From an uncultured Acidimicrobiaceae bacterium (GTDB lineage Bacteria; Actinomycetota; Acidimicrobiia; Acidimicrobiales; RAAP-2): DNA of 64,000 nt. Position 1 is the first letter of the stretch; each line of letters begins with the position of its first letter. This document shows positions 7,069 to 24,171 of the stretch, piece by piece. The notes beneath the pieces were generated by a model that saw only the letters and a list, made by a program, of their open reading frames with translations, made no database searches and was not told the DNA's origin. The DNA lies in assembly GCA_903894295.1 (NCBI GenBank), contig CAITPI010000134.1, positions 4,793-68,792 on the forward strand, read 5' to 3'. The position numbers and the translations under genes were made by a program.

Positions 7069-8997
7069 GTGATGACTGTGGCCGAGCGGCGTCTGTTGAC
7101 CGAAACGATCGAACTGGCCGGACGCCAGGCGTCCAGCCGGGTGGTCTTCGGACCCCACGAGACCAATCTCGGCGACGACCGCGCCCTTGGTTCCCGCCAC
7201 GCCGCCTACTACGCCGCCCGGGCGGCCGGCGGGGCCGGCATCATCATCACCGAGACCGCCTCGGTGCACCCCTCGGACTGGCCCTACGAGCGGGCACCCC
7301 GGGCGGACGGGTGTGGACCGGGATGGCAGGCCATCGTCGCCGCCTGCCGCCAGGAGGGCGCCCTCGTGGTGGCCAGCCTCGGGCACGCCGGAGCACAGGG
7401 ATCGAGTGCCTACTCCCAGATGGCGCTGTGGGCCCCGTCCCCGGTGGCCGACGTGGTCAACCGGGAGATGCCCATGGTCATGGAACAGGCCGAGGTCGAC
7501 CAACTGGTGGAGGGTTTCCACACAAGTGCCGTGGTGGCCCGTCAGGCCGACCTCGACGGCATCGAGATCGACATCGGGCCCTACTCCCTGCTGCGCCAGT
7601 TCCACTCGGGACTCACCAACCAACGCAGCGACCGCTACGGCGAGGACCGGCTCCTGCTGACCCGCCAGGTCATCGGCGCCGTCCGGGACGCCCTCGGAGA
7701 CGACCGGATCGTCGCCCTTCGCTTCTGTGCCGACGAGTTGGCACCCTGGGCCGGAATCACCCCGGAGATGGCCGCCGAAGCCCTGGCTTCTCTGGCGCCG
7801 CTGGTCGACATGGTGACGGTGGTCCGGGGTGGTCCGTACTCCACGTCGTCCTACCGTCCCGACGCCCACACGGGGGCAAACTTCAACCGGGAGCTGTGCG
7901 AATCGATGCGATCGGCCGTCGGGGGAACCGCCCTCGTGGCGCTCCAGGGCAGCGTTGTCTCGGTGGCCGACGCCCAGGACGCCCTCGACGGGGGCGTGTG
8001 CGATCTCGTGGAGATGACCCGGGCCCAGATCGCCGACCCGCGGCTGGTGGCCCGGGTCCGTGAGAACCAGGCCGAACGGATCCGACCTTGTGTCCGGTGC
8101 AACCAGGCCTGTCGGGTGCGGGACAACCGGAACCCCATCGTCAGCTGCATCGGCGAGCCCCGCAGCGGACACGAGACCACCGAGGACGAGCCCGAAGAAG
8201 GCGCTCCCCGGACCCGTCGGCCCGTCCGGATCGTCGGATCCGGTGTGGCCGGACTCGAGTGCGCCCGGGTGCTGGCCCTCATGGGCCACACCGTCGAGGT
8301 ACTGGAGGCGGCCCCGGTTCCCGGTGGCACCCTCCGACGGGCCGCCCGGGGTCATGGCCGGGAGAACCTCGGCGCACTGGTCGACTGGCTGCTCGACGAG
8401 TGCGGGCGCCTTGGCGTCACCATCCGCTGTGGGGTGACCGCAACGGCGGACGACCTCGGAGGAGACGTGATCCTGGCCACCGGGTCCCGGCCACAGCCCC
8501 ACCGCCACCCCAACGACGGCACGGTCGCCGTCGTCGACGCCCTTTCCGTCCTGGACGGCGATGAACTCCCCTTTGGGCCGGTACTGGTCCACGATCCGGT
8601 GGGAGGTCCGGTCGGCATCGGGATCGCCGAATGGCTGGCCGGGGAGGGAATCGAGGTGGCCCTGGCCGCCCCCGACCCCATCGCCGGCACCTTGCTGTCG
8701 CTGACCGGAGACCTGGCGGATGCCAACACCCGGCTCCAACAGGCCGGCGTCAAGCGCGAGCTCCGGGTCCGACTGCGTGAACTCGCCGACGGCCAGGCGT
8801 TGCTCGAGGACGTCTGGACCGCCGAACGTCGGCGCATCCCGGTCGCCACGGTCGTGGATGCCTCACACCGCGAGCCGGAAGAAACCCTTTATCTGACCCG
8901 GCCGGGAACCACCCGGATCGGCGACTGTGTCGCACCCCGCTCGGCCCTCGAGGCCGTCCTCGAAGGGCGTCGGGCCGCCATGGCGGTGGAGGCCTGA
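7069..8997 (+). CDS. FadH/OYE-family flavo-iron-sulfur oxidoreductase (mycofactocin-associated type 1)
   Basis: ORF 7069..8997. It has an N-terminal OYE TIM-barrel (AAYYAARAAGGAGIIITE), a CVRCNQACRVRDNRNPIVSC 4Fe-4S motif and a C-terminal Rossmann domain (RIVGSGVAGLECA). The architecture is that of 2,4-dienoyl-CoA reductase. Confidence 0.8.
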   Translation: MMTVAERRLLTETIELAGRQASSRVVFGPHETNLGDDRALGSRHAAYYAARAAGGAGIIITETASVHPSDWPYERAPRADGCGPGWQAIVAACRQEGALVVASLGHAGAQGSSAYSQMALWAPSPVADVVNREMPMVMEQAEVDQLVEGFHTSAVVARQADLDGIEIDIGPYSLLRQFHSGLTNQRSDRYGEDRLLLTRQVIGAVRDALGDDRIVALRFCADELAPWAGITPEMAAEALASLAPLVDMVTVVRGGPYSTSSYRPDAHTGANFNRELCESMRSAVGGTALVALQGSVVSVADAQDALDGGVCDLVEMTRAQIADPRLVARVRENQAERIRPCVRCNQACRVRDNRNPIVSCIGEPRSGHETTEDEPEEGAPRTRRPVRIVGSGVAGLECARVLALMGHTVEVLEAAPVPGGTLRRAARGHGRENLGALVDWLLDECGRLGVTIRCGVTATADDLGGDVILATGSRPQPHRHPNDGTVAVVDALSVLDGDELPFGPVLVHDPVGGPVGIGIAEWLAGEGIEVALAAPDPIAGTLLSLTGDLADANTRLQQAGVKRELRVRLRELADGQALLEDVWTAERRRIPVATVVDASHREPEETLYLTRPGTTRIGDCVAPRSALEAVLEGRRAAMAVEA

Positions 8998-15739: not shown

Positions 15740-16503
15740 TGACCGGGGCGGCCCGGGGCATCGGTGCCGCCACGGTCCGCCGCATGGTGGCCGATGACTG
15801 GCTGGTGGTGGCGGTCGACCGGGGATCGGACGATCCTCGTCTGCCCTATCCACTCGGCACTGCCGAGGAGTTGGCCGCGGTGGCCGAGGCCGGTGGCGAC
15901 CGGGTGATCGCCATGCTCGCCGACACCACCGACCCCGACGGCCTGGCCGCTGCGGTGGCCCGGGCCGAGTCCGAGTTCGGGGGCCTCGATGCCATGGTGG
16001 CCGCCGCCGGCGTGATCGCCGGAGGGGTCCCACTGTGGGAGATGCCCGACCACGAGATCGCTTCCGTGCTCGGCGTCAACCTCGGAGGGGTCATCAACGC
16101 CGCCCGGGTCTCCATACCGGCCCTGCTGCGCCAACCCTCCCCCCGCTCCGGCCGGTTTCTGGCCGTGGCGTCCGCCGCCGCCTCCCGGGGCCTCCCCATG
16201 CTGGCCGCCTACGGAGCGGCCAAAGCCGGCGTCGCCGGCCTGATCCGGGGACTGGCCGTCGAACTGGGCAACTCCGGAGTGACGGCCAACGCCGTCTCCC
16301 CCGGTTCCACCGACACCGCGCTCCTGGAGGAGAGCGCCCGCATCTACGGCCTCGAATCGACCGCCGCGTTCACCCACCACCAGCCGATCGGTCGCCTGCT
16401 GGGAGCCGACGAGGTGGCGGCGGCCATCGTCTGGCTGGCCGGTAATGATTCGAGCGGCCTGACCGGGGCCGTCGTTCCCGTCGACGGCGGGCTGGCCCTG
16501 TGA
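15721..16503 (+). CDS. mycofactocin-coupled SDR-family oxidoreductase (second copy)
   Basis: ORF 15721..16503. It has VAVVTGAARGIGAA, the insert DRGSDDPRLPYPLGTAEELAAV and YGAAKAG. It lies between mftE and mftF. Confidence 0.8.
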   Translation: MSRVAVVTGAARGIGAATVRRMVADDWLVVAVDRGSDDPRLPYPLGTAEELAAVAEAGGDRVIAMLADTTDPDGLAAAVARAESEFGGLDAMVAAAGVIAGGVPLWEMPDHEIASVLGVNLGGVINAARVSIPALLRQPSPRSGRFLAVASAAASRGLPMLAAYGAAKAGVAGLIRGLAVELGNSGVTANAVSPGSTDTALLEESARIYGLESTAAFTHHQPIGRLLGADEVAAAIVWLAGNDSSGLTGAVVPVDGGLAL

Positions 16504-17825
16504 GCCCTCGTCAGCTCCGGCTGACGATCGATCCATCCGTCCGCCGATTCGGCACCACCCTCCTCGGCGGTCAACCCACCCGCCTGATGAAACTCTCGCC
16601 GGCCGGCCTGTCGGTCCTCGACGACCTCCAACGGGGCTGTCCACCCACCCCGGGGGCCACCGCGCTGTTCCACCGGTTGGTCACGGCCGGACTCGCCCAT
16701 CCGAGAGGCGAAGGAACCGGAACCCTCACGGTGGTCATTCCGGTCCACAACCGGCCCGACGAGCTCGAAGCGTGTCTGGATGCCCTCGGGACCCGGTGGC
16801 CGGTCGTCGTCGTCGACGATGCATCCGAACATCCACCGGAACGACGACCTGGTATCCGTCATCTCCGACTGGACGTGAACTCCGGGCCGGGCGCGGCCCG
16901 CAACGCCGGGGCGGCGTTGTGTGGGACCGAGTTCATCGCCTTCGTGGACAGCGACGTCACCATCTCCGGCGACGACCTCGCCGGGTTGCTGAGTTGCATG
17001 GACGATCCCGAGGTGGTCGCCACCGCACCCCGGATCAGACCGTTGGCGACCGGACGGACCAACTGGCTGTCACGCTTCGCCGACGGACACTCGGACCTCG
17101 ATCTCGGCGCCCTGGAGAGCGAGGTCGGACCGGGCAAACGGGTCACCTACGTGCCTTCGGCGGTGCTGGTCATCCGCCGGGATGCCTTGGATGACGGCTT
17201 CGACGAGGACCTGCGGGTCGGCGAAGACGTCGACCTCGTCTGGCGGCTGGTGGCCGCCGGGGGCAGGATCCGCTACAACCCCGGCGTGGTGGCGAGGCAC
17301 CGGGAACCGACAAGTTGGGCCCGTTGGTTCAGGCGGCGCTACTCGTATGGAACCTCGGCCGGACCCCTGGCCGTGCGACACCCATCCGGGCCCCTCCGCC
17401 CGACCTTCTCCCGGTGGCCGACGCTGTCCGTCATCGGGCTGCTCTCGGCCCGCCGGTCCACGACCCTGGTCGGTGCCGCCGCCGCCGGGTGGACGGTCAC
17501 GAGGGCCACAAGGACCCTCCGCCCGAAGGGGATCCCGGGACCGGATGCCGCCCGGATGGGCGTGGCCGGGATGGGCTGGACGTTGGTTGGCCTGCTCTCC
17601 TGGGCACTGACGGCATTCGTTCCCCTCGCACTGCTCCGCCGGAAGCGCCGGTGGCTGGTCGTCCTGCCGGCTCTCGTTGCGTGGTGGAACAGGAAGCCCG
17701 AACTCGACCCCGTGCGTTGGGTGGCGGCCAGTCTCGTCGACGATGTCGCCTATGGTGCCGGGGTTTGGGCCGGCTGCCTGAAGGCCCGGACCCTGGCACC
17801 CCTCCTCCCCCGCTGGACCAACTGA
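16500..17825 (+). CDS. mftF: mycofactocin system glycosyltransferase MftF (GT2)
   Basis: ORF 16500..17825 (GTGA overlap). It has an N-terminal PqqD-like segment, a GT2 core (VVIPVHNRPDELEACL...VVVVDDAS...FVDSD) and C-terminal TM helices. Confidence 0.8.
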   Translation: MSPRQLRLTIDPSVRRFGTTLLGGQPTRLMKLSPAGLSVLDDLQRGCPPTPGATALFHRLVTAGLAHPRGEGTGTLTVVIPVHNRPDELEACLDALGTRWPVVVVDDASEHPPERRPGIRHLRLDVNSGPGAARNAGAALCGTEFIAFVDSDVTISGDDLAGLLSCMDDPEVVATAPRIRPLATGRTNWLSRFADGHSDLDLGALESEVGPGKRVTYVPSAVLVIRRDALDDGFDEDLRVGEDVDLVWRLVAAGGRIRYNPGVVARHREPTSWARWFRRRYSYGTSAGPLAVRHPSGPLRPTFSRWPTLSVIGLLSARRSTTLVGAAAAGWTVTRATRTLRPKGIPGPDAARMGVAGMGWTLVGLLSWALTAFVPLALLRRKRRWLVVLPALVAWWNRKPELDPVRWVAASLVDDVAYGAGVWAGCLKARTLAPLLPRWTN

Positions 17826-18197: not shown

Positions 18198-18881
18198 ATG
18201 CGGACCCGCATTGCACTCGCGGCGATCGTTCCGGTCGCTCTCAGTTCCATTACCCTGTTGTCTCCCGTTGCCGCTTCCACGCTGGCATCGGGACCGAGCA
18301 CACAGCCCCACCGGTCATCGTCGTTCAATGGCCTGAATCCCGGATTTGCCTACGAAGGCTGGTCGCCCCACATGGTGGGACTCGTCCAGGACTTCGTCAG
18401 TGGCCGCAAGGCTGCCTCGCTGACGGCATATTCACCGACACCGAAGGCCCGACCCGTGGCGCATCCCGCCAAGGCGAAGGTAGCCCCGGCCCATCCGGCC
18501 GTCGCTCCTTCGGTGGCGATCCAACCGGTGGTCGCCGTGACCCCGGCCGTCATCCATCCGGTGGCCGCAGCCCCCAAGGCCGCGGCCCCGGTCGCTGTCG
18601 CCACTCCGCCGACCACGGCCCCGACTGGGATCGTCGATACCGTGACGCCCACCCAACGGGCTGAGTGGAGTCGGGTCGCCATGTGCGAAGAGGGTGGCAA
18701 CTGGCACGTCAACGGTTCCCGCTTCAGCGGAGGACTCGGCATCTCCCGGGCCAACTGGGTCGCCTACGGCGGCCTGCAGTATGCCCCCTACGGTGCGGCG
18801 GCCACGCCGGACGAGCAGATCATGGTGGCCGAACGGATCCAGGCCAATCCGCCTGACCAGTACGGCTGCTCCTCCTGGTAA
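18198..18881 (+). CDS. rpf: resuscitation-promoting factor (Rpf) family secreted transglycosylase-like protein
   Basis: ORF 18198..18881. It has a signal peptide, an Ala/Pro-rich linker and the C-terminal Rpf domain, WSRVAMCEEGGNWHVNGSRFSGGLGISRANWVAYGG...DEQIMVAERIQ. Confidence 0.85.
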   Translation: MRTRIALAAIVPVALSSITLLSPVAASTLASGPSTQPHRSSSFNGLNPGFAYEGWSPHMVGLVQDFVSGRKAASLTAYSPTPKARPVAHPAKAKVAPAHPAVAPSVAIQPVVAVTPAVIHPVAAAPKAAAPVAVATPPTTAPTGIVDTVTPTQRAEWSRVAMCEEGGNWHVNGSRFSGGLGISRANWVAYGGLQYAPYGAAATPDEQIMVAERIQANPPDQYGCSSW

Positions 18882-18898: not shown

Positions 18899-18936
18899 GC
18901 AAAACGCCCGGCCTTTCGGCCGGGCGTTTTGCTTTT
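18899..18936. terminator. bidirectional intrinsic terminator between convergent rpf and csp
   Basis: The sequence gcAAAACGCCCGGCC-tttc-GGCCGGGCGTTTTgctttt forms a 9-bp GC stem flanked by an A-tract and a T-tract. It can therefore terminate transcription from either strand. Confidence 0.8.
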
Positions 18937-18955
18937 GGTGGGCCGGAGCCCCGGT

Positions 18956-19159
18956 TCAGATCTTGCGAACCTGGCTGGCCTGCAGACCCTTCTGACCCTG
19001 CTTGGTCTCGAACTCCACCCGCTGGCCTTCGGCCAGATCGCGGAAGCCCTCCATCTGGATCTCCGACTGGTGGACGAAGAGATCGTCTCCGCCACCATCA
19101 GGAGTGATGAATCCGAAACCTTTTTCGGCGTTGAACCACTTCACTGCACCTACACCCAT
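18956..19159 (-). CDS. csp: cold-shock protein (CspA family)
   Basis: Internal ATG at 19159 of ORF 18956..19579. [34 protein letters not shown]... carries the RNP1 and RNP2 motifs. It is 67 aa, and a long upstream leader is plausible. Confidence 0.95.
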
Positions 19160-19364
19160 AACTGAGTCTCCTTGAAATTCACGCACGAAAAAGCAGGATC
19201 CAAAAGATGAAGCCCTACTGACACCAGCCCGCGTGATTGGGCCGGCAACAGTCCAGCCTAGGGGCAAACGGGCTTCTCTGCTTGGCGACGCCACTTTTGG
19301 ACAAAAACGGGGCTCCAGAAGTCCATGTCCGCCGGGGGTCCTCCCCCGTCCCCGGACCCGCTCG

Positions 19365-19595
19365 TCAGACTGGGCGGGGCTTGCGTTCGAGGACGATGGC
19401 CCGCCGGGGACACTCGGAGACGGCCTTGCGGGCCAGGGCAACCAGCTGCCCGGAGACGGGTTCGGGATCCACCATGGGATAGCCCCACTCGTCGAGGGTG
19501 ATCCGTTCCGGGAACATCTCGGCGCAGAACCCGAAGGCGTCACAGGCCACGGGATCGATGCGCAGGGCGTACTCTTCACGGCGCTGGGCGCTCAT
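19365..19595 (-). CDS. small ferredoxin (single-cluster type)
   Basis: ORF 19365..19595, 76 aa. [18 protein letters not shown]...CPRRAI fits small actinobacterial ferredoxins. Its start overlaps the upstream stop (ATGA). Confidence 0.65.
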
Positions 19596-20821
19596 CGGGG
19601 CGTCCTCATGACCGACGGCGAGCGGTGGGCCGCGCAGGGTCGGCCGGCCCCATGTCGGGCCACATCGGCGGAGAAGACGTCGAGTCCCGTGCGGATCATC
19701 CGCACCACGCCGTCGGGATGACCACAGGCGCCCCGCCGTTCGACCTGCTCGAGGTGCCGGACCATCCGCCGGGACCAGGCGTTTCCGACCCGACCGGACC
19801 AGAGCTGGTCCAGGTCGTCAGCCAGGGCGGGAAGGCCGAACACGCAAGGTCCACACTGGCCTGCCCCCTGGCCGGCCATGTAGCGGGCAACCCTCGCCAT
19901 CTCGGCGATGCCACAGCTGTCAGGACCAAGGGCCACCACCATGCCGACGCCGTGGCTCACGCCCACCCCTCGCAGCGAAGCCGGAGCGTAGGGAACATCA
20001 AGGTGCTCCCGGCCCAGCCACCCACCGCCATAACCGCCGATGAGCATGCCCTCGACCCCGGTCGTGCCACCGGCCAACTCCAGCAGCGAGCGGATCGGGG
20101 TGCCCATCGGGGCCTCGATCACCCCGGGTGTCCTCACCGCACCGGCGATGGTGAACAACGAGGTTCCCGGCGACTCTGCGGTGCCGAGCGAGCGGAACCA
20201 GTTGGCGCCGTAGCGGGCCACCAGTGCCACCTGGGCCATCGTTTCGGCGTTCTGCACCAGCACCGACTGTCGGCCGATCCGAAGGGGCGTCGACTTGTCC
20301 ATGCGGAACATCGGCCGGGCATCTCCATCTTCGAGCCAGTGGACCAGCGAGGACTCCTCACCGGTGATGTAGCGGGCCGGAAGGCGTTCAAGGGTCGCCA
20401 TGGTCCTGGGCCGTTCGCCCAACGCCCGCTCCAGTGCCTCGAATGGTCCGTTCTGGTCCTCGGCCACGCAGATGCGGATCGACGATGCCCCCAGAACCCG
20501 GGCCGCCAGTTCGGCACCATCGAGCACCAGATGGGGGGAGAACGTCACGAGGACCCGGTCCTTCCCGCTCATCGGCTCGCCTTCCATGACGTTCACCACC
20601 ACCACGGCCCGGCCCTTGGCCTTGCGGACCGACTCCCACTTCCGCCACGTCGGGAATCCACCACCACCCCGGCCGGTGAGACCCGAGGCCTGCAACTCGC
20701 TCCAGAGATCGTCGTTCGTTCGTTCCGGCAACGGACCGTAGGTCTGGACGTGGGAGGCCAGACCGGGATCGCCGGCCACCAGCAGGCGGGGCTCAAAGGT
20801 CGTGGGACTCACCACCGTCAT
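19592..20821 (-). CDS. NuoF-like NAD(P)H-binding flavo-iron-sulfur protein
   Basis: This is the frame of ORF 19592..21529, but the start is at ATG 20821 (ATGA overlap). It has GLTGRGGGGFPTWRKW, MEGEPMSGKDR and a C-terminal GQCGPCVFG...GACGHPDG region. These are NuoF 51-kDa-type FMN/NADH and 4Fe-4S blocks. Confidence 0.75.
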   Translation of the reverse strand: MTVVSPTTFEPRLLVAGDPGLASHVQTYGPLPERTNDDLWSELQASGLTGRGGGGFPTWRKWESVRKAKGRAVVVVNVMEGEPMSGKDRVLVTFSPHLVLDGAELAARVLGASSIRICVAEDQNGPFEALERALGERPRTMATLERLPARYITGEESSLVHWLEDGDARPMFRMDKSTPLRIGRQSVLVQNAETMAQVALVARYGANWFRSLGTAESPGTSLFTIAGAVRTPGVIEAPMGTPIRSLLELAGGTTGVEGMLIGGYGGGWLGREHLDVPYAPASLRGVGVSHGVGMVVALGPDSCGIAEMARVARYMAGQGAGQCGPCVFGLPALADDLDQLWSGRVGNAWSRRMVRHLEQVERRGACGHPDGVVRMIRTGLDVFSADVARHGAGRPCAAHRSPSVMRTPR

Positions 20822-21456
20822 CGCCGACCGCTCAGCAACGAAGTTGAACCGGTGCTCCGGCCGGGAGCCGGAATGCCCCGCGGGGCGTGGGTCCGGGCTG
20901 CCACCCGGGCCGCCCGGTCGACCTGGCGAAGGTGGCTGACCCACCGCCAGAGGAAAGCGATTCCCACGGCCAGCACGCAGGCGACCACGAAGAGGTCCAT
21001 CCAGCCCTGGGCCACGTCGGTTCCGATGACGACGGAGTGGAGGACGGCGACCGGCCAACATCCGTAACTCAACCAGTGCACGGTCCGCCAGGCCCGGGCG
21101 CTCATGCGCTGACGGAAGGCACTCGACAGGGCCACAGCGAGCAGCATGTCGAACGCCACCGTGCCGATGCCGGTGGCCAGTGGTCGGTAGTGGGAAGTCA
21201 GGGGAACCACCACACCAAGCAGTCCGATATGGACATAGGTGTCCAACACGGCGGAGAGGATGTGGATCCCGAGGAACGCCATCGTGAAGATCGTCAGTCG
21301 CTTGTGGAGTTCGGCCGTGACGAAGGCCGGCGTGCGCCGCGTACTGGCCCGGGCCGTGGTCAGGAGACCGAGAACCACCACGAGGGACAGAAGCCCGAGC
21401 GAGACCACGCCGCTCGCCCGCATCACATACCAGATCATCTTTGACGAGGTGATCAT
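20818..21456 (-). CDS. ferric-reductase-like (MsrQ-like) transmembrane heme-b protein
   Basis: ORF 20818..21498, start taken at ATG 21456 (ATGA overlap). It has about 6 TM helices with conserved His residues in helices (FLGIHILSAV, VHWLSYG, VLHSVV), typical of the ferric reductase TM domain. Confidence 0.65.
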   Translation of the reverse strand: MITSSKMIWYVMRASGVVSLGLLSLVVVLGLLTTARASTRRTPAFVTAELHKRLTIFTMAFLGIHILSAVLDTYVHIGLLGVVVPLTSHYRPLATGIGTVAFDMLLAVALSSAFRQRMSARAWRTVHWLSYGCWPVAVLHSVVIGTDVAQGWMDLFVVACVLAVGIAFLWRWVSHLRQVDRAARVAARTHAPRGIPAPGRSTGSTSLLSGRR

Positions 21457-22394
21457 GCTGCCACCTCCTCCGCCACCACCGACGGGGAACCGGGCCAACT
21501 CCCCACGGTGACGACGGCACCGTCCGCACCCTGCAGCCGGGCGGCCACTCCGTGGCCGGCCAGGTGTCCGGGGGCGTCCGGCCCCCAGATGACCGCCGCC
21601 GTGCTCAGGGCATTGGCCACAAGGCAGGTGGGGGCGGCAACCGAAACCAGCGACCAGGTGGTCGCCGCCGGCCGGCCCGTGGCCGGATCAACGATGTGGT
21701 GGACGCGCTCTCCGCCGGTGTGCCAGACCCGGGTCGTCGTGCCCGAGGTGGCGACCGCTCCATGATCAAGTCCGATGACCTGGGCCACGTCCGCCTTCGG
21801 TGTCGAGCAGTGCATCCCGATCCCGATCGGCCAACCACCGACCGGAGCCGGGCCGGCCAGCGCGATGTCGCCACCCAGGTTGACCAGAACCCCACAGCCC
21901 AGCAACCGGAAGATCTCCGAGGCAGCCCGGTCGGCGGCGAACGCCTTGGCCGAGGCCCCGAGATCGACGTGAACCCCTTCGGGAATGGCAACCTGCCCCT
22001 CCCGGAGGCCGATCCGCCACCATCCCGGTGCGGGCACGGGTTCGATGGCCTCGTCGGCCGGCGAAAGGGTCTCGAAGTCGGCGTCGTAGCCGAGGGCGAC
22101 CAGCGAGCCACCGACGGTGGGATCGACCGTTCCTCCGGTCAATTCGGCGACCTCGACGGCCGCCCGCAACAACTCTCCGAGCAACGGAGATGCGGCCATC
22201 CACCGTCCGGCCGATCCCTGCTCGATCCGGGCGAGCTCCGAGTCATTTCGGAACCGGCTGCAGGTCCGGTCCAGTTCGTCGATCTGGAGGTGGAGAACCC
22301 GCTCCGCTTCGTCGGCGACGGCCGGGTCGGTGACAACCACAGAGACCGTTGTTCCAATGGCCCGAAAGGACCGATCTGCTGTCACCGAGGTCAT
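21453..22394 (-). CDS. apbE: FAD:protein FMN transferase (ApbE)
   Basis: ORF 21453..22394. FRAIGTTVSVVV, RFRNDSELARI, GGTVDPTVG, VDLGASAKAFAAD, LVNLGGDI and ATSGTTTR are ApbE-family blocks. No obvious signal peptide or lipobox is present. Confidence 0.8.
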   Translation of the reverse strand: MTSVTADRSFRAIGTTVSVVVTDPAVADEAERVLHLQIDELDRTCSRFRNDSELARIEQGSAGRWMAASPLLGELLRAAVEVAELTGGTVDPTVGGSLVALGYDADFETLSPADEAIEPVPAPGWWRIGLREGQVAIPEGVHVDLGASAKAFAADRAASEIFRLLGCGVLVNLGGDIALAGPAPVGGWPIGIGMHCSTPKADVAQVIGLDHGAVATSGTTTRVWHTGGERVHHIVDPATGRPAATTWSLVSVAAPTCLVANALSTAAVIWGPDAPGHLAGHGVAARLQGADGAVVTVGSWPGSPSVVAEEVAA

Positions 22395-22759
22395 GATTGA
22401 CCCGAGACACTCGAAGGCGACTGCGGGGACGGGGTCGGCGCGACGTAGGGGGAGGACGTCCCCGAGTTGTAGGACGGTGCGGTGCCCGAGTTGGCGGAGG
22501 GCGTGGCGCCCGAGTTGTACGACGGTGCGGTGCCCGAGTTGGCGGAAGGCGTGGCGCCCGAGTTGGACGTCGACTGCGTGGCCGGGTGGGTGGTGGCGCT
22601 GGAGGCTGCCTCACCGGCCATCATCACTCCGACGCCGACGAATCCCACCACAGAGGCCACTCCGACCACCTTGGTGGCCATCCCGATCGTTTCCATTGCA
22701 CGATCCCGGCGACCCAACTCGTGGTTCCTCCGGGATGAATCGTTTGCTCCTCGGCTCAT
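22391..22759 (-). CDS. small membrane-anchored Ser/Thr/Pro-rich repeat protein with tandem NSGAT motifs
   Basis: This is the frame of ORF 22391..23089, start taken at ATG 22759 (AGGAG lies about 10 nt upstream). It has a basic N-terminus, the TM helix VVGVASVVGFVGVGVMMAG, and then NSGATPSANSGTAPSY x2 followed by NSGTSSPY. Its stop overlaps the apbE start (ATGA). Confidence 0.5.
   Translation of the reverse strand: MSRGANDSSRRNHELGRRDRAMETIGMATKVVGVASVVGFVGVGVMMAGEAASSATTHPATQSTSNSGATPSANSGTAPSYNSGATPSANSGTAPSYNSGTSSPYVAPTPSPQSPSSVSGQS
22461..22572. repeat. 48-bp tandem duplication (24-bp sub-period) inside the small repeat-protein gene
   Basis: 22461-22508 and 22509-22556 differ at 2 positions, and a partial third unit follows. 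The duplication encodes the NSGATPSANSGTAPSY modules. Confidence 0.85.
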
Positions 22760-22902: not shown

Positions 22903-24057
22903 TCAGACGATGGCCACCCGGAAGAAGGCCACGGACAGACCGACCGCCACCCAGGACGAGATGGCCACCAGCACGAGTTGGACCGGGATTGGCAACCGCC
23001 GAAGCAGCACAACGCAAGGCAACAGCAGGGCTTCGGACCGGTACCGACTGAGTTCGGGACCCTGCAGGAGAGGGACGATCCAGAAGCACACGGTGTAGAT
23101 GGCGACGATGATCGAGAGCCGGTCCCGCACCGTGTAGGCCACGCCCACCGCCAGAACCACAAGTACCAGCACCAGGACCTCCTGGGCCTGGGCGGCGTGC
23201 ACCTGGTAGCCCTTGTTGAGGCTCACATACTTGTCCGGACTCACGAAACCGATGAACGGGGCCAGGAACTCGGTGACCGGATTATGGATGCCGTTCCCGT
23301 ACTTGGCCTGATCAAGGAAGAAAGCCTGCCAGTTTCCCGCCCACCACCAAAAGCCGGCCAGGAGGGCCAGGAACCCCGCAAGGGCTACCCCGGCACTCTC
23401 CATCGTGTGTTTGGCCCGGTTCCAGATCGAACTGCCCCAGTCCGTCAACGGCGCCGCGGCCGCCAGCACCGGGATGAGAACGAACCCGGTGGCGTACGAC
23501 CAGGAAGCGGCGGCGGCGGCCAGACCGGCCAGCAGGTAGCGACGCCGGTCGAGCGCGAGGATCGCCAACAGGGCAAAAAGCACCACCATCGAGATGGGAA
23601 ACACTGCATAGAAGTAGACGAGGCCCGGAAATGACGCCGCGAGTGCCAACGCCGTCAGGTGGCCGATCCTCAGTTCGGGTCCGATCAGGGTCCAGGCGGT
23701 GAGCAGCACGAAGTAGGAGAGGATCGCCGACACGACAACACCCGCGGCAAAGATCGAAAGTCCGCAGCGATGGAGCAACTCCATGGTCCAGGGATACAAC
23801 GGCATCCATCCGGTCGTCCCGCACCAGCTGCCCGGAGGCCATGCCTCCTTGGCCGGGCAGCGGAAGAAGGTGTAGCCGTGTTCGGCGATCGAGGCGTAGA
23901 GCCCCGAGTCGTAGCGGGCCCACGTCCAGCCTGAGAACAGGTGGTTGGCGACCTGGGCCCGCCGGGCGCCGAGAACGAGCAGGGCATACGAGTAGAAGAG
24001 CGCCAGAAGCGGTGGCGCGAACCTGACCGGCCAGAAGATCTTCTGTCTTTCAACCAC
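22903..24057 (-). CDS. GT-C fold integral membrane glycosyl/mannosyltransferase (PIG-V-like)
   Basis: This is the lower part of ORF 22903..25101. It has about 9-10 TM helices. WARYDSGLYASIAEHGY and WMPLYPW resemble the WD..WY..IA..GY / FFPLYP signature of the PIG-V-type mannosyltransferase family. The start is uncertain; I chose GTG 24057. Confidence 0.55.
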   Translation of the reverse strand: MVERQKIFWPVRFAPPLLALFYSYALLVLGARRAQVANHLFSGWTWARYDSGLYASIAEHGYTFFRCPAKEAWPPGSWCGTTGWMPLYPWTMELLHRCGLSIFAAGVVVSAILSYFVLLTAWTLIGPELRIGHLTALALAASFPGLVYFYAVFPISMVVLFALLAILALDRRRYLLAGLAAAAASWSYATGFVLIPVLAAAAPLTDWGSSIWNRAKHTMESAGVALAGFLALLAGFWWWAGNWQAFFLDQAKYGNGIHNPVTEFLAPFIGFVSPDKYVSLNKGYQVHAAQAQEVLVLVLVVLAVGVAYTVRDRLSIIVAIYTVCFWIVPLLQGPELSRYRSEALLLPCVVLLRRLPIPVQLVLVAISSWVAVGLSVAFFRVAIV

Positions 24058-24171
24058 GGCCGACCCAACCTCTGCCAGCTCTGCTGCTGCCGGTTCCACG
24101 TCCCGCAAGGCCACGTCTTCCTCCACCACCCGACAAGTCTCCCAGACCGGGCTTCCGATAGCCTGTTCTCC

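Follow-up and report, generated by a model that had tools for sequence, protein, structure and literature searches.

An Acidimicrobiales electron-transfer operon pairs an ApbE-family protein with a small tailed membrane protein, a candidate flavinylation substrate without a flavin-binding fold

ApbE-dependent flavinylation is a major bacterial means of wiring redox chemistry outside the cytoplasm and, to our knowledge, all ApbE substrates proven to date are folded domains that cradle the flavin. In the extracellular electron transfer system of the Gram-positive Listeria, which uses flavin import and trafficking (ECF transporter), a surface-tethered protein flavinylated by the extracytosolic, ApbE-like FmnB feeds extracellular acceptors; this substrate, PplA, has folded FMN_bind domains and its electron input comes via Ndh2 and quinone. 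In the fumarate reductase targeted by ApbE in Klebsiella pneumoniae, the canonical motif lies in an FMN_bind domain. Here we analyze a 64,000-nucleotide stretch of an uncultured Acidimicrobiaceae bacterium (contig CAITPI010000134.1; the whole stretch is hereafter called the window), in which five open reading frames (ORFs) on the minus strand (22759-19365) encode, in this order, a small membrane protein, an ApbE-family protein (apbE), an MsrQ-like heme protein (msrQ-like), a NuoF-like protein (nuoF-like) and a ferredoxin (fdx). The operon represents a widespread Acidimicrobiales variant of the MsrQ-like/NuoF-like type, in which a predicted cytosolic ApbE has Asn at a Mg-ligand position and the conserved small protein crosses the membrane once and carries a disordered tail. 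We tentatively propose that it is an electron-export module in which the small protein replaces the FMN_bind partner and ApbE flavinylates its terminal S-G-[Q/G/A]-[S/T]; taken as a whole, this proposal falls a little short of an even chance.

The MsrQ-like + NuoF-like operon class has been catalogued before: 31 MsrQ-like flavinylation-associated clusters with a NuoF-like protein were reported and are typical of Actinobacteria (Meheust et al., 2021, eLife; PMC8238504). With this class the window operon shares the PF01794 heme protein beside apbE and the NuoF-like protein (PF10589) as the cytosolic entry point for NAD(P)H (PMC8238504). Unlike the class, it has no FMN_bind gene, its ApbE is predicted to be cytosolic with Asn in place of the Mg-ligand Asp, and a fold-less small protein stands in the substrate slot; a signal peptide or lipobox on a flavinylation component, as would be expected for the class, is missing, and the small protein has just a signal-anchor-like helix. 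The operon also differs from the Listeria system, since its input would run through the NuoF-like protein, ferredoxin and b-hemes, no folded flavin domain is present and its ApbE is predicted on the cytosolic side. Like the window ApbE, the cytoplasmic ApbE of K. pneumoniae has no signal peptide (PMC12052999), but its target is the soluble cytoplasmic fumarate reductase, whereas no cytoplasmic canonical target is encoded near the window operon. DUF4266, found in ApbE/DUF3570/DsbD clusters, accompanies the proven folded substrate DUF3570 and is a different family with a different motif; by comparison, the small proteins of clade 2, one of two clades described below, end in a conserved Cys-x4-S-G-x3-Cys loop. 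Finally, the engineered flavin-tag is a short linear motif without a folded domain that is flavinylated best at a terminus (Tong et al., 2021, summarised in PMC12052999). The candidate motif of the small proteins likewise lies at or within 3 residues of the C-terminus, but it departs from the D-x-x-[ST]-G-A-[ST] of the tag in replacing A by Q or G and in lacking the Asp, and its carrier is a disordered tail anchored in the membrane. The features of the operon are as follows.

22391..22759, minus strand: small membrane protein gene, 122 amino acids (aa); ORF with AGGAG 10 nt 5' of the ATG, also called by a public gene caller on the source contig
22673..22708, minus strand: juxtamembrane motif, residues 18-29 of the small protein, RDRAMETIGMAT, on the cytoplasmic side
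22461..22569, minus strand: 48-bp tandem repeat, 2.3 copies, 95% match, encoding NSGATPSANSGTAPSY twice (Tandem Repeats Finder, TRF)
22394..22408, minus strand: C-terminal motif VSGQS, residues 118-122, whose last codon overlaps the apbE start; candidate flavinylation-like site
21453..22394, minus strand: ApbE-family protein, 313 aa (PF02424)
20818..21456, minus strand: MsrQ-like / ferric-reductase-domain membrane protein, 212 aa (PF01794)
19592..20821, minus strand: NuoF-like NAD(P)H-binding flavo-iron-sulfur protein, 409 aa (PF01512 + PF10531 + PF10589)
19365..19595, minus strand: single-cluster ferredoxin, 76 aa (Fer4_15)

An earlier reading of the window from its letters (the sequence-only reading) had described ATGA start/stop overlaps at all four junctions, and rereading the minus strand gives them at the same coordinates (22394-22391, 21456-21453, 20821-20818 and 19595-19592). 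The gene set that it proposed is matched by Pfam, which returns ApbE, ferric-reductase-like, NuoF-like and ferredoxin domains and no domain for the first product. Promoter, terminator and Rfam scans revealed no regulatory element or flavin mononucleotide (FMN) riboswitch in the operon. An identical NuoF-like protein is encoded on a 90-kb ENA metagenome scaffold, while the next-best relatives are just 57% identical. Relatives of the locus were collected in two scans. More specifically, a NuoF-like profile was run on one genome per GTDB species and matched at least 545 stretches encoding such a protein; the 80 with the best scores were analyzed and are Acidimicrobiales, Acidimicrobiaceae or unclassified actinobacterial metagenome-assembled genomes (MAGs) throughout, and the order apbE-msrQ-nuoF-fdx was recovered by tblastn in nearly all of them. 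A scan of metagenome contigs with the ApbE of the most distant genome locus as query added 80 further loci from bog, peat and soil, of which 48 are complete with the gene order unchanged. The five-gene arrangement, for which a survey of relatives had been suggested, is present in about 155 related loci that keep the operon order (Acidimicrobiales MAGs; peat or soil metagenomes), and the SGAT repeat noticed in the window is not conserved among them. When the flanking ORFs were clustered, no additional partner gene proved to be conserved and only synteny with cold-shock and Rpf genes appeared, in about 40 loci, suggesting that the operon is a self-contained unit.

The electron-transfer proteins indicate that the operon is very probably an NAD(P)H-to-outside electron-export module. 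The membrane protein matches PF01794 (Ferric_reduct) at 29.0 bits, weakly but above the gathering cut-off of 28. It has two histidine pairs, H51/H65 (HX13H) and H127/H140 (HX12H), which 78-79 of 79 relatives keep without change and which are both present in 67/67 clade-2 proteins; this spacing is the signature of two-heme ferric-reductase domains. The NuoF-like protein combines Complex1_51K (PF01512), SLBB (PF10531) and NADH_4Fe-4S (PF10589) domains, and its GRGGxGFP, NAMEGEP and GEESAL motifs together with five Cys are invariant (79-81 relatives). Its identification as the complex I 51-kDa subunit was rejected: the TIGR01959 score of 173.5 is far under the equivalog cut-off of 558.65 (NCBIfam), and the neighbours are apbE, msrQ-like and fdx instead of nuo genes. 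The ferredoxin matches Fer4_15 at 35.3 bits (Pfam) and has its cysteines arranged as C18-x5-C24 ... C62-P, with C18 and C24 present in 79/79 relatives and C62 in 76/79, the remaining three being alignment gaps. A natural in-frame MsrQ-like::NuoF-like fusion (P0078, 662 aa, on an ENA contig of 609 kb) argues for physical contact between the two proteins and for a cytoplasmic C-terminus of the heme protein. In the path that we propose, NAD(P)H would reduce the FMN of the NuoF-like protein, as its conserved cofactor motifs suggest, and electrons would then move via the Fe-S cluster of this protein to the three-Cys ferredoxin; from there they would reach the 212-aa MsrQ-like protein, first its inner b-heme and then its outer one. 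The electron path given by the sequence-only reading fits these data, namely the conserved NuoF-like FMN/NADH motifs and Cys, the three ferredoxin Cys, the invariant His pairs and the P0078 fusion. As a separate observation, six loci (L030, L038, L041, L063, L066 and L080) have a gap of about 600 nt between msrQ-like and nuoF-like that contains no conserved ORF; the heme protein may extend into it with a Pro/Arg-rich C-terminus.

The small proteins form a genuine family that had not been described before. The 122-aa product of the window has no Pfam or NCBIfam match, FMN_bind included, as the sequence-only reading had expected, and ten diverse relatives have no Pfam match at E<=1. That reading had described the product as having a basic N-terminus, one hydrophobic helix and a low-complexity tail with NSGATPSA twice, which agrees with what we find. 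Across the family the design consists of a basic cytoplasmic motif, an Ala/Gly/Val-rich membrane-spanning helix, a disordered Ser/Thr-rich tail and a conserved end; a single-sequence AlphaFold2 (AF2) model of the window protein has a helix at residues 4-51, and over residues 60-110 its predicted local distance difference test score (pLDDT) stays under 50. Of 75 testable genome loci, about 70 have an ORF built in this way beside apbE, as do 70 metagenome loci; the ORF usually lies directly upstream and is translationally coupled to apbE in about 140 loci, with junctions of -4, -1, +2 or +7 nt. In L048 and L080 the small gene sits between apbE and the heme gene, that is, it stays in the cluster on reordering. 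These two loci (L048 4773-6747, L080 4455-6378), where the order is switched to apbE, small protein, msrQ-like, also have a cytochrome-b-like membrane protein of about 600 aa directly upstream of apbE. A hidden Markov model (HMM) search found 99 representative clusters among 1.84 billion proteins, mostly of 70-170 residues, and a profile of the N-terminus retrieved just 5 short proteins from a 5.8-billion-protein collection. Gene calls at the locus are irregular: in L082 an opposite-strand ORF (7960-8307, minus strand) is called in place of the small gene, and in P0128, P0258, P0260, P0261 and others frameshifted run-through calls join it to apbE. Because the small gene is routinely missed or mis-called, surveys of annotated proteins will not find the family.

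The most conserved feature of the family, in both clades, is the N-terminal consensus R-D-R-x-[LMF]-x-R-V-R-[RHN]-x-T. In clade 1 (n=61), R is kept in 59 sequences, D in 51, both Arg of R-V-R in 61 and T in 55; in clade 2, T/S is kept in 53/55. The window protein keeps RDRAM and the Thr but is missing RVRR. The tail measures 45-101 residues (T 32%, S 25%, A 14%, G 8%, P 8%). Given the charge bias it is predicted to lie outside the membrane, with which the paired Cys of clade 2 are consistent. Export by the Tat pathway was considered and rejected: the pattern RR.[FGAVML][LITMVF] occurs in 3/67 peptides only, Thr is fixed at RR+2, some relatives have RH or RN in place of RR, and the window protein lacks RR. 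Just after the helix, a His occurs within 20 residues in 52/67 clade-1 peptides, as AHS or EHPG (for example 'TTAHS' or 'KEHPGAS' in relatives; the region corresponds to residues ~53-60 in the window), and could be part of a signal-peptidase-like A-x-S site or an outer-heme contact.

At the other end, clade-1 proteins finish with the consensus T-[VT]-S-G-Q-[ST]-stop, which reads VSGQS in the window. Among 67 peptide ends, 50 are SGQ[ST], 8 are SGG[ST] followed by 1-3 residues and 5 are S[RS]QS; in an independent library, 21 of 22 intact clade-1b (SGG clade) peptides end in [TV][TVS]SGG[TS]S(R), and one has SGATS (P0298). A hydroxyl residue follows two positions after the Gly in 59/59 clade-1 sequences, and judged by its residues the motif S-G-[Q/G/A]-[S/T] appears closely similar to the ApbE motif [S/T]-G-A-[S/T]. 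Conservation over the last 8 residues amounts to 2.5-4.1 bits per position, whereas the equally coupled ends of the ApbE, heme and NuoF-like proteins reach 0.7-2.6. Internal copies of SGQ[ST] also occur in the tails, 7 in number against 0.4 expected (0/1000 shuffles reached 7), with the Ser codons TCC, TCT, TCA and AGC. Orthologous internal sites have Ala or Thr where the motif has Gln (TVSGAS, TTSGAS, TVSGTT), and SGAS/SGAT variants are found in L005 and L020. The motif is retained where the downstream gene is msrQ-like (L048, L080). That the terminal conservation is nothing but a ribosome-binding site was rejected, as the other three coupled junctions show no conserved peptide ends and the internal copies use different Ser codons. 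Clade-2 proteins end in PVTTTT[VT]-C-x-[TS]-[TS]-P-S-G-x-[VTQ]-[TIS]-C-x. This clade-2 loop (L083-L162, e.g., L094, L117 and L141; also L056, L068, L074 and L076) may be a disulfide-closed hairpin and departs from the flavinylation-like register.

The sequence-only reading had suggested a flavinylation substrate without a domain, and this part of its claim stands to the extent that relatives carry a fold-less small protein beside apbE and no FMN_bind; the site that it pointed to, NSGAT, is not the conserved one. No FMN_bind gene and no ORF with D-x-x-[ST]-G-A-[ST] was found within +/-5-7 kb of any locus, and the small protein belongs to none of the known ApbE substrate folds (FMN_bind, NqrB/RnfD, DUF2271, DUF3570, Flavodoxin_4, FMN_red). 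ApbE modifies 7-residue tags, best at protein termini; changing the motif Asp to Ala has a minor effect, and Gly-to-Ala or Ala-to-Val keeps about 50% of flavinylation (PMC12052999). Cytosolic ApbEs exist as well (PMC12052999). Flavinylation of such short tags makes a domain-less substrate biochemically plausible. We consider that, within clade 1, modification of the terminal S-G-x-[S/T] by ApbE has a roughly even chance of being correct. The small protein would then occupy the slot of the FMN_bind-domain protein in other MsrQ-like/ApbE clusters, and ApbE would attach FMN to the last Ser/Thr of S-G-[Q/G/A]-[S/T] (Ser122 of VSGQS in the window), the two NSGAT copies being optional extra sites at most. 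Held on a flexible tether, the flavin would be reduced by the outer heme and would in turn reduce external acceptors. With a cytosolic ApbE, modification would have to precede export of the unfolded tail, a speculative step. One elaboration, a 'flavin on a string', has the Asn-variant cytosolic ApbE flavinylating the C-terminal Ser/Thr of a mucin-like anchored tail before export. The stalk, up to about 25 nm long, would then hold a covalently tethered shuttle outside the Gram-positive cell, and export of flavin adenine dinucleotide (FAD) would be unnecessary. An unfolded substrate could be threaded through Sec, and the outer b-heme of the MsrQ-like protein would reduce the tethered flavin, which would reduce Fe(III), humics or O2. 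We regard this elaboration as unlikely.

The enzyme itself scores 178.7 bits against PF02424 (gathering score 25.6), solved ApbE structures in the PDB match it at E values of 8e-31 to 8e-16, and the active-site Ser217 and His233 (Vc Ser241 and His257) are kept in 74/78 and 75/78 relatives, with the active-site spacing (16 and 28 residues) the same as in Vc. Domain score, structure similarity, Ser and His thus agree with membership of PF02424, while the Mg-ligand Asp and a signal peptide or lipobox, the latter common in the family though not universal, are missing. These two absences are among several observations that weigh against flavinylation of the tail. The Asp (Vc Asp285, Tp Asp284, Lm Asp301), which in the PDB homologs of the window ApbE lies within A-D-x-x-x-T, is replaced by Asn261 in the window (codon 21612-21614), and Asn occupies this position in 151/153 relatives (76/78 plus 75/75 of clade 2). 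It is a first-sphere Mg ligand and one of only three conserved ApbE active-site residues, and the Tp D284A mutant loses both activities. The second Mg ligand (Tp T288) is retained as Thr265 in 77/78 relatives, and conservation of this Thr with the Ser and His suggests a site that is under selection but altered. No ApbE signal peptide or anchor was found in any of about 135 relatives, which upholds and extends to all relatives examined a caveat of the sequence-only reading, that the ApbE has no obvious signal peptide. The maximal ORF is 313 aa with no extension possible; the part that precedes the first strand, compared across 59 relatives, has a median length of 25 aa, a Kyte-Doolittle(15) maximum <=1.17 and no hydrophobic stretch, and clade-2 ApbE proteins begin right at the first conserved strand. 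With no signal peptide and an ORF that cannot be extended, the enzyme is predicted to be cytosolic, on the opposite side of the membrane from the predicted location of the motif. The motif has its own difficulties: its Gly is replaced by Arg or Ser in 5/67 peptides, Gln for Ala is a non-conservative change, and in clade 2 the position two after the Gly is V in 22, T in 19 and Q in 6 sequences, so that only Ser-Gly is common to both clades. In addition, the terminal Ser codon is TCG in 47/50 and the Gly is enriched for GGG, which forms a G-run 5 nt ahead of the apbE start; these biases show that the terminal conservation is in part a nucleotide-level one, as the apbE ribosome-binding site. A literature search found no description of a fold-less ApbE substrate or of an ApbE system in Acidimicrobiia.

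Some of these points also fit a different account, in which the small protein is not flavinylated and belongs to the heme protein complex as a subunit with a structural, docking or regulatory role, its tail is a glycosylated spacer or wall-binding element, and the ApbE-like protein has another cytosolic role, such as flavin binding or handling for the NuoF-like protein, modification of another target, or modification of the Thr of RVRRxT in the small protein. Here the Asn in place of the Mg ligand, the lack in clade 2 of a conserved acceptor at the canonical register and the partial ribosome-binding-site constraint on the terminus all speak for this account, and ApbE and the RDR..RVRRxT motif, the most conserved in both clades, share the cytoplasmic side. 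As a target, however, RVRRxT is unlike any known ApbE motif, lies inside a helix in the AF2 model and has lost its RVRR in the window itself; no other conserved SG-type S/T was seen in the NuoF-like, ferredoxin or heme proteins, and the conservation of S-G-[QGA]-[ST] and its internal copies are left unexplained. We consider this account, in all its forms together, somewhat unlikely. A far smaller chance attaches to the small ORF being a membrane anchor or linker of ApbE through recoding at the stop/start overlap, or a spurious ORF conserved as the apbE ribosome-binding site, which together we judge highly improbable. A basic N-terminus, transmembrane helix and Ser/Thr linker are the usual design of anchored actinobacterial exoproteins, an anchor would account for the absent ApbE signal peptide, and there is hardly any variation in the junction CAG-(T/A)C(A/G)-TGA, with its G-run 5 nt upstream of the start. 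Against this, the junction contains no slippery sequence, its geometry varies between loci, the small gene follows apbE in L048 and L080, and the other coupled junctions show no such peptide conservation; the internal copies, the conserved amino acids of the N-terminus and the Cys loop of clade 2 are all features of the protein itself. All apparent database fusions are out-of-frame caller or assembly artefacts: peptide-ApbE or peptide-FMN_bind candidates (P0128, P0129, P0146, P0195, P0210, P0247, P0258, P0260, P0261, P0271, P0273, P0294 and P0306) were rejected as out-of-frame extensions, frameshifted or chimeric assemblies.

The last alternative concerns the site. Following the sequence-only reading, the NSGAT repeats would be the flavinylation sites; in this version the number of repeats would tune the flavin load. 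NSGAT does fit the core [ST]GA[ST], and a regular-expression search of the five operon proteins agrees with that reading in finding [ST]GA[ST] only in the small protein (SGAT at residues 67-70 and 83-86). Canonical internal copies also exist in a few relatives (STGAT in L001, SSGAT in L014, TSGAS in L020, NSGAS and TSGAT in L056). The window pair, however, comes from one recent 48-bp duplication, and as both NSGAT copies lie within this single tandem repeat they are not independent. Any [ST]GA[ST] is present in the tails of just 12/67 relatives (18%) and in 6/70 clade-2 peptides, the number of occurrences (14) is that expected by shuffling (13.1 +/- 3.5), and motif positions are non-orthologous between genomes. 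The upstream Asp, whose absence from NSGAT had already been noted as a caveat, is not found before S-G-[QG]-[ST] either. The motif is therefore at chance frequency in relatives and not conserved, an outcome that the sequence-only reading had itself named as refuting the repeat as a site, and we consider NSGAT a very unlikely flavinylation site.

Around the operon, a cold-shock gene (CSD) at 18956-19159 (minus strand) lies just downstream and is a neighbour in about 40/81 loci. An Rfam match to the cspA thermoregulator at 18899-19246 (minus strand; 62.5 bits, gathering score 78, E=1.5e-14) covers the leader and coding region of this gene. Upstream, 144 bp from the small gene and on the same strand, 22903-24114 (minus strand) encodes a 403-aa multi-pass membrane protein with no Pfam match at E<=0.1, in which a GT-C/PIG-V-like YDSGLYASIAEHGY stretch can be made out by eye; in relatives its presence beside the operon is not conserved. 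Near the operon of L082 there are PMT_2 and GT2 genes, which may matter if the Ser/Thr tail is O-glycosylated. Two ordinary actinobacterial envelope genes lie further along on the plus strand, one for an Rpf-like transglycosylase (18198-18881; PF06737) that has an Ala/Pro-rich linker of its own, the other for a glycosyltransferase of family 2 (16500-17825).

In this soil- and peat-abundant lineage, the MsrQ-like/NuoF-like module has dropped its folded FMN_bind partner, and a flavinylation-like motif at the tip of the tail is the only conserved extracellular feature of the clade-1 small protein. If the tip is not flavinylated, the Asn-variant cytosolic ApbE of a very widespread operon would serve some other function. 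If it is, the substrate rules of ApbE would widen, the engineered flavin-tag would have a natural counterpart, and monoderm Actinobacteria would have a tethered-shuttle mechanism for extracellular electron transfer. Should the 'flavin on a string' hold, no ApbE substrate before the small protein would have lacked a flavin-binding fold, and the module would represent a new way to wire electrons through the cell wall, in hundreds of soil and peat Acidimicrobiales.

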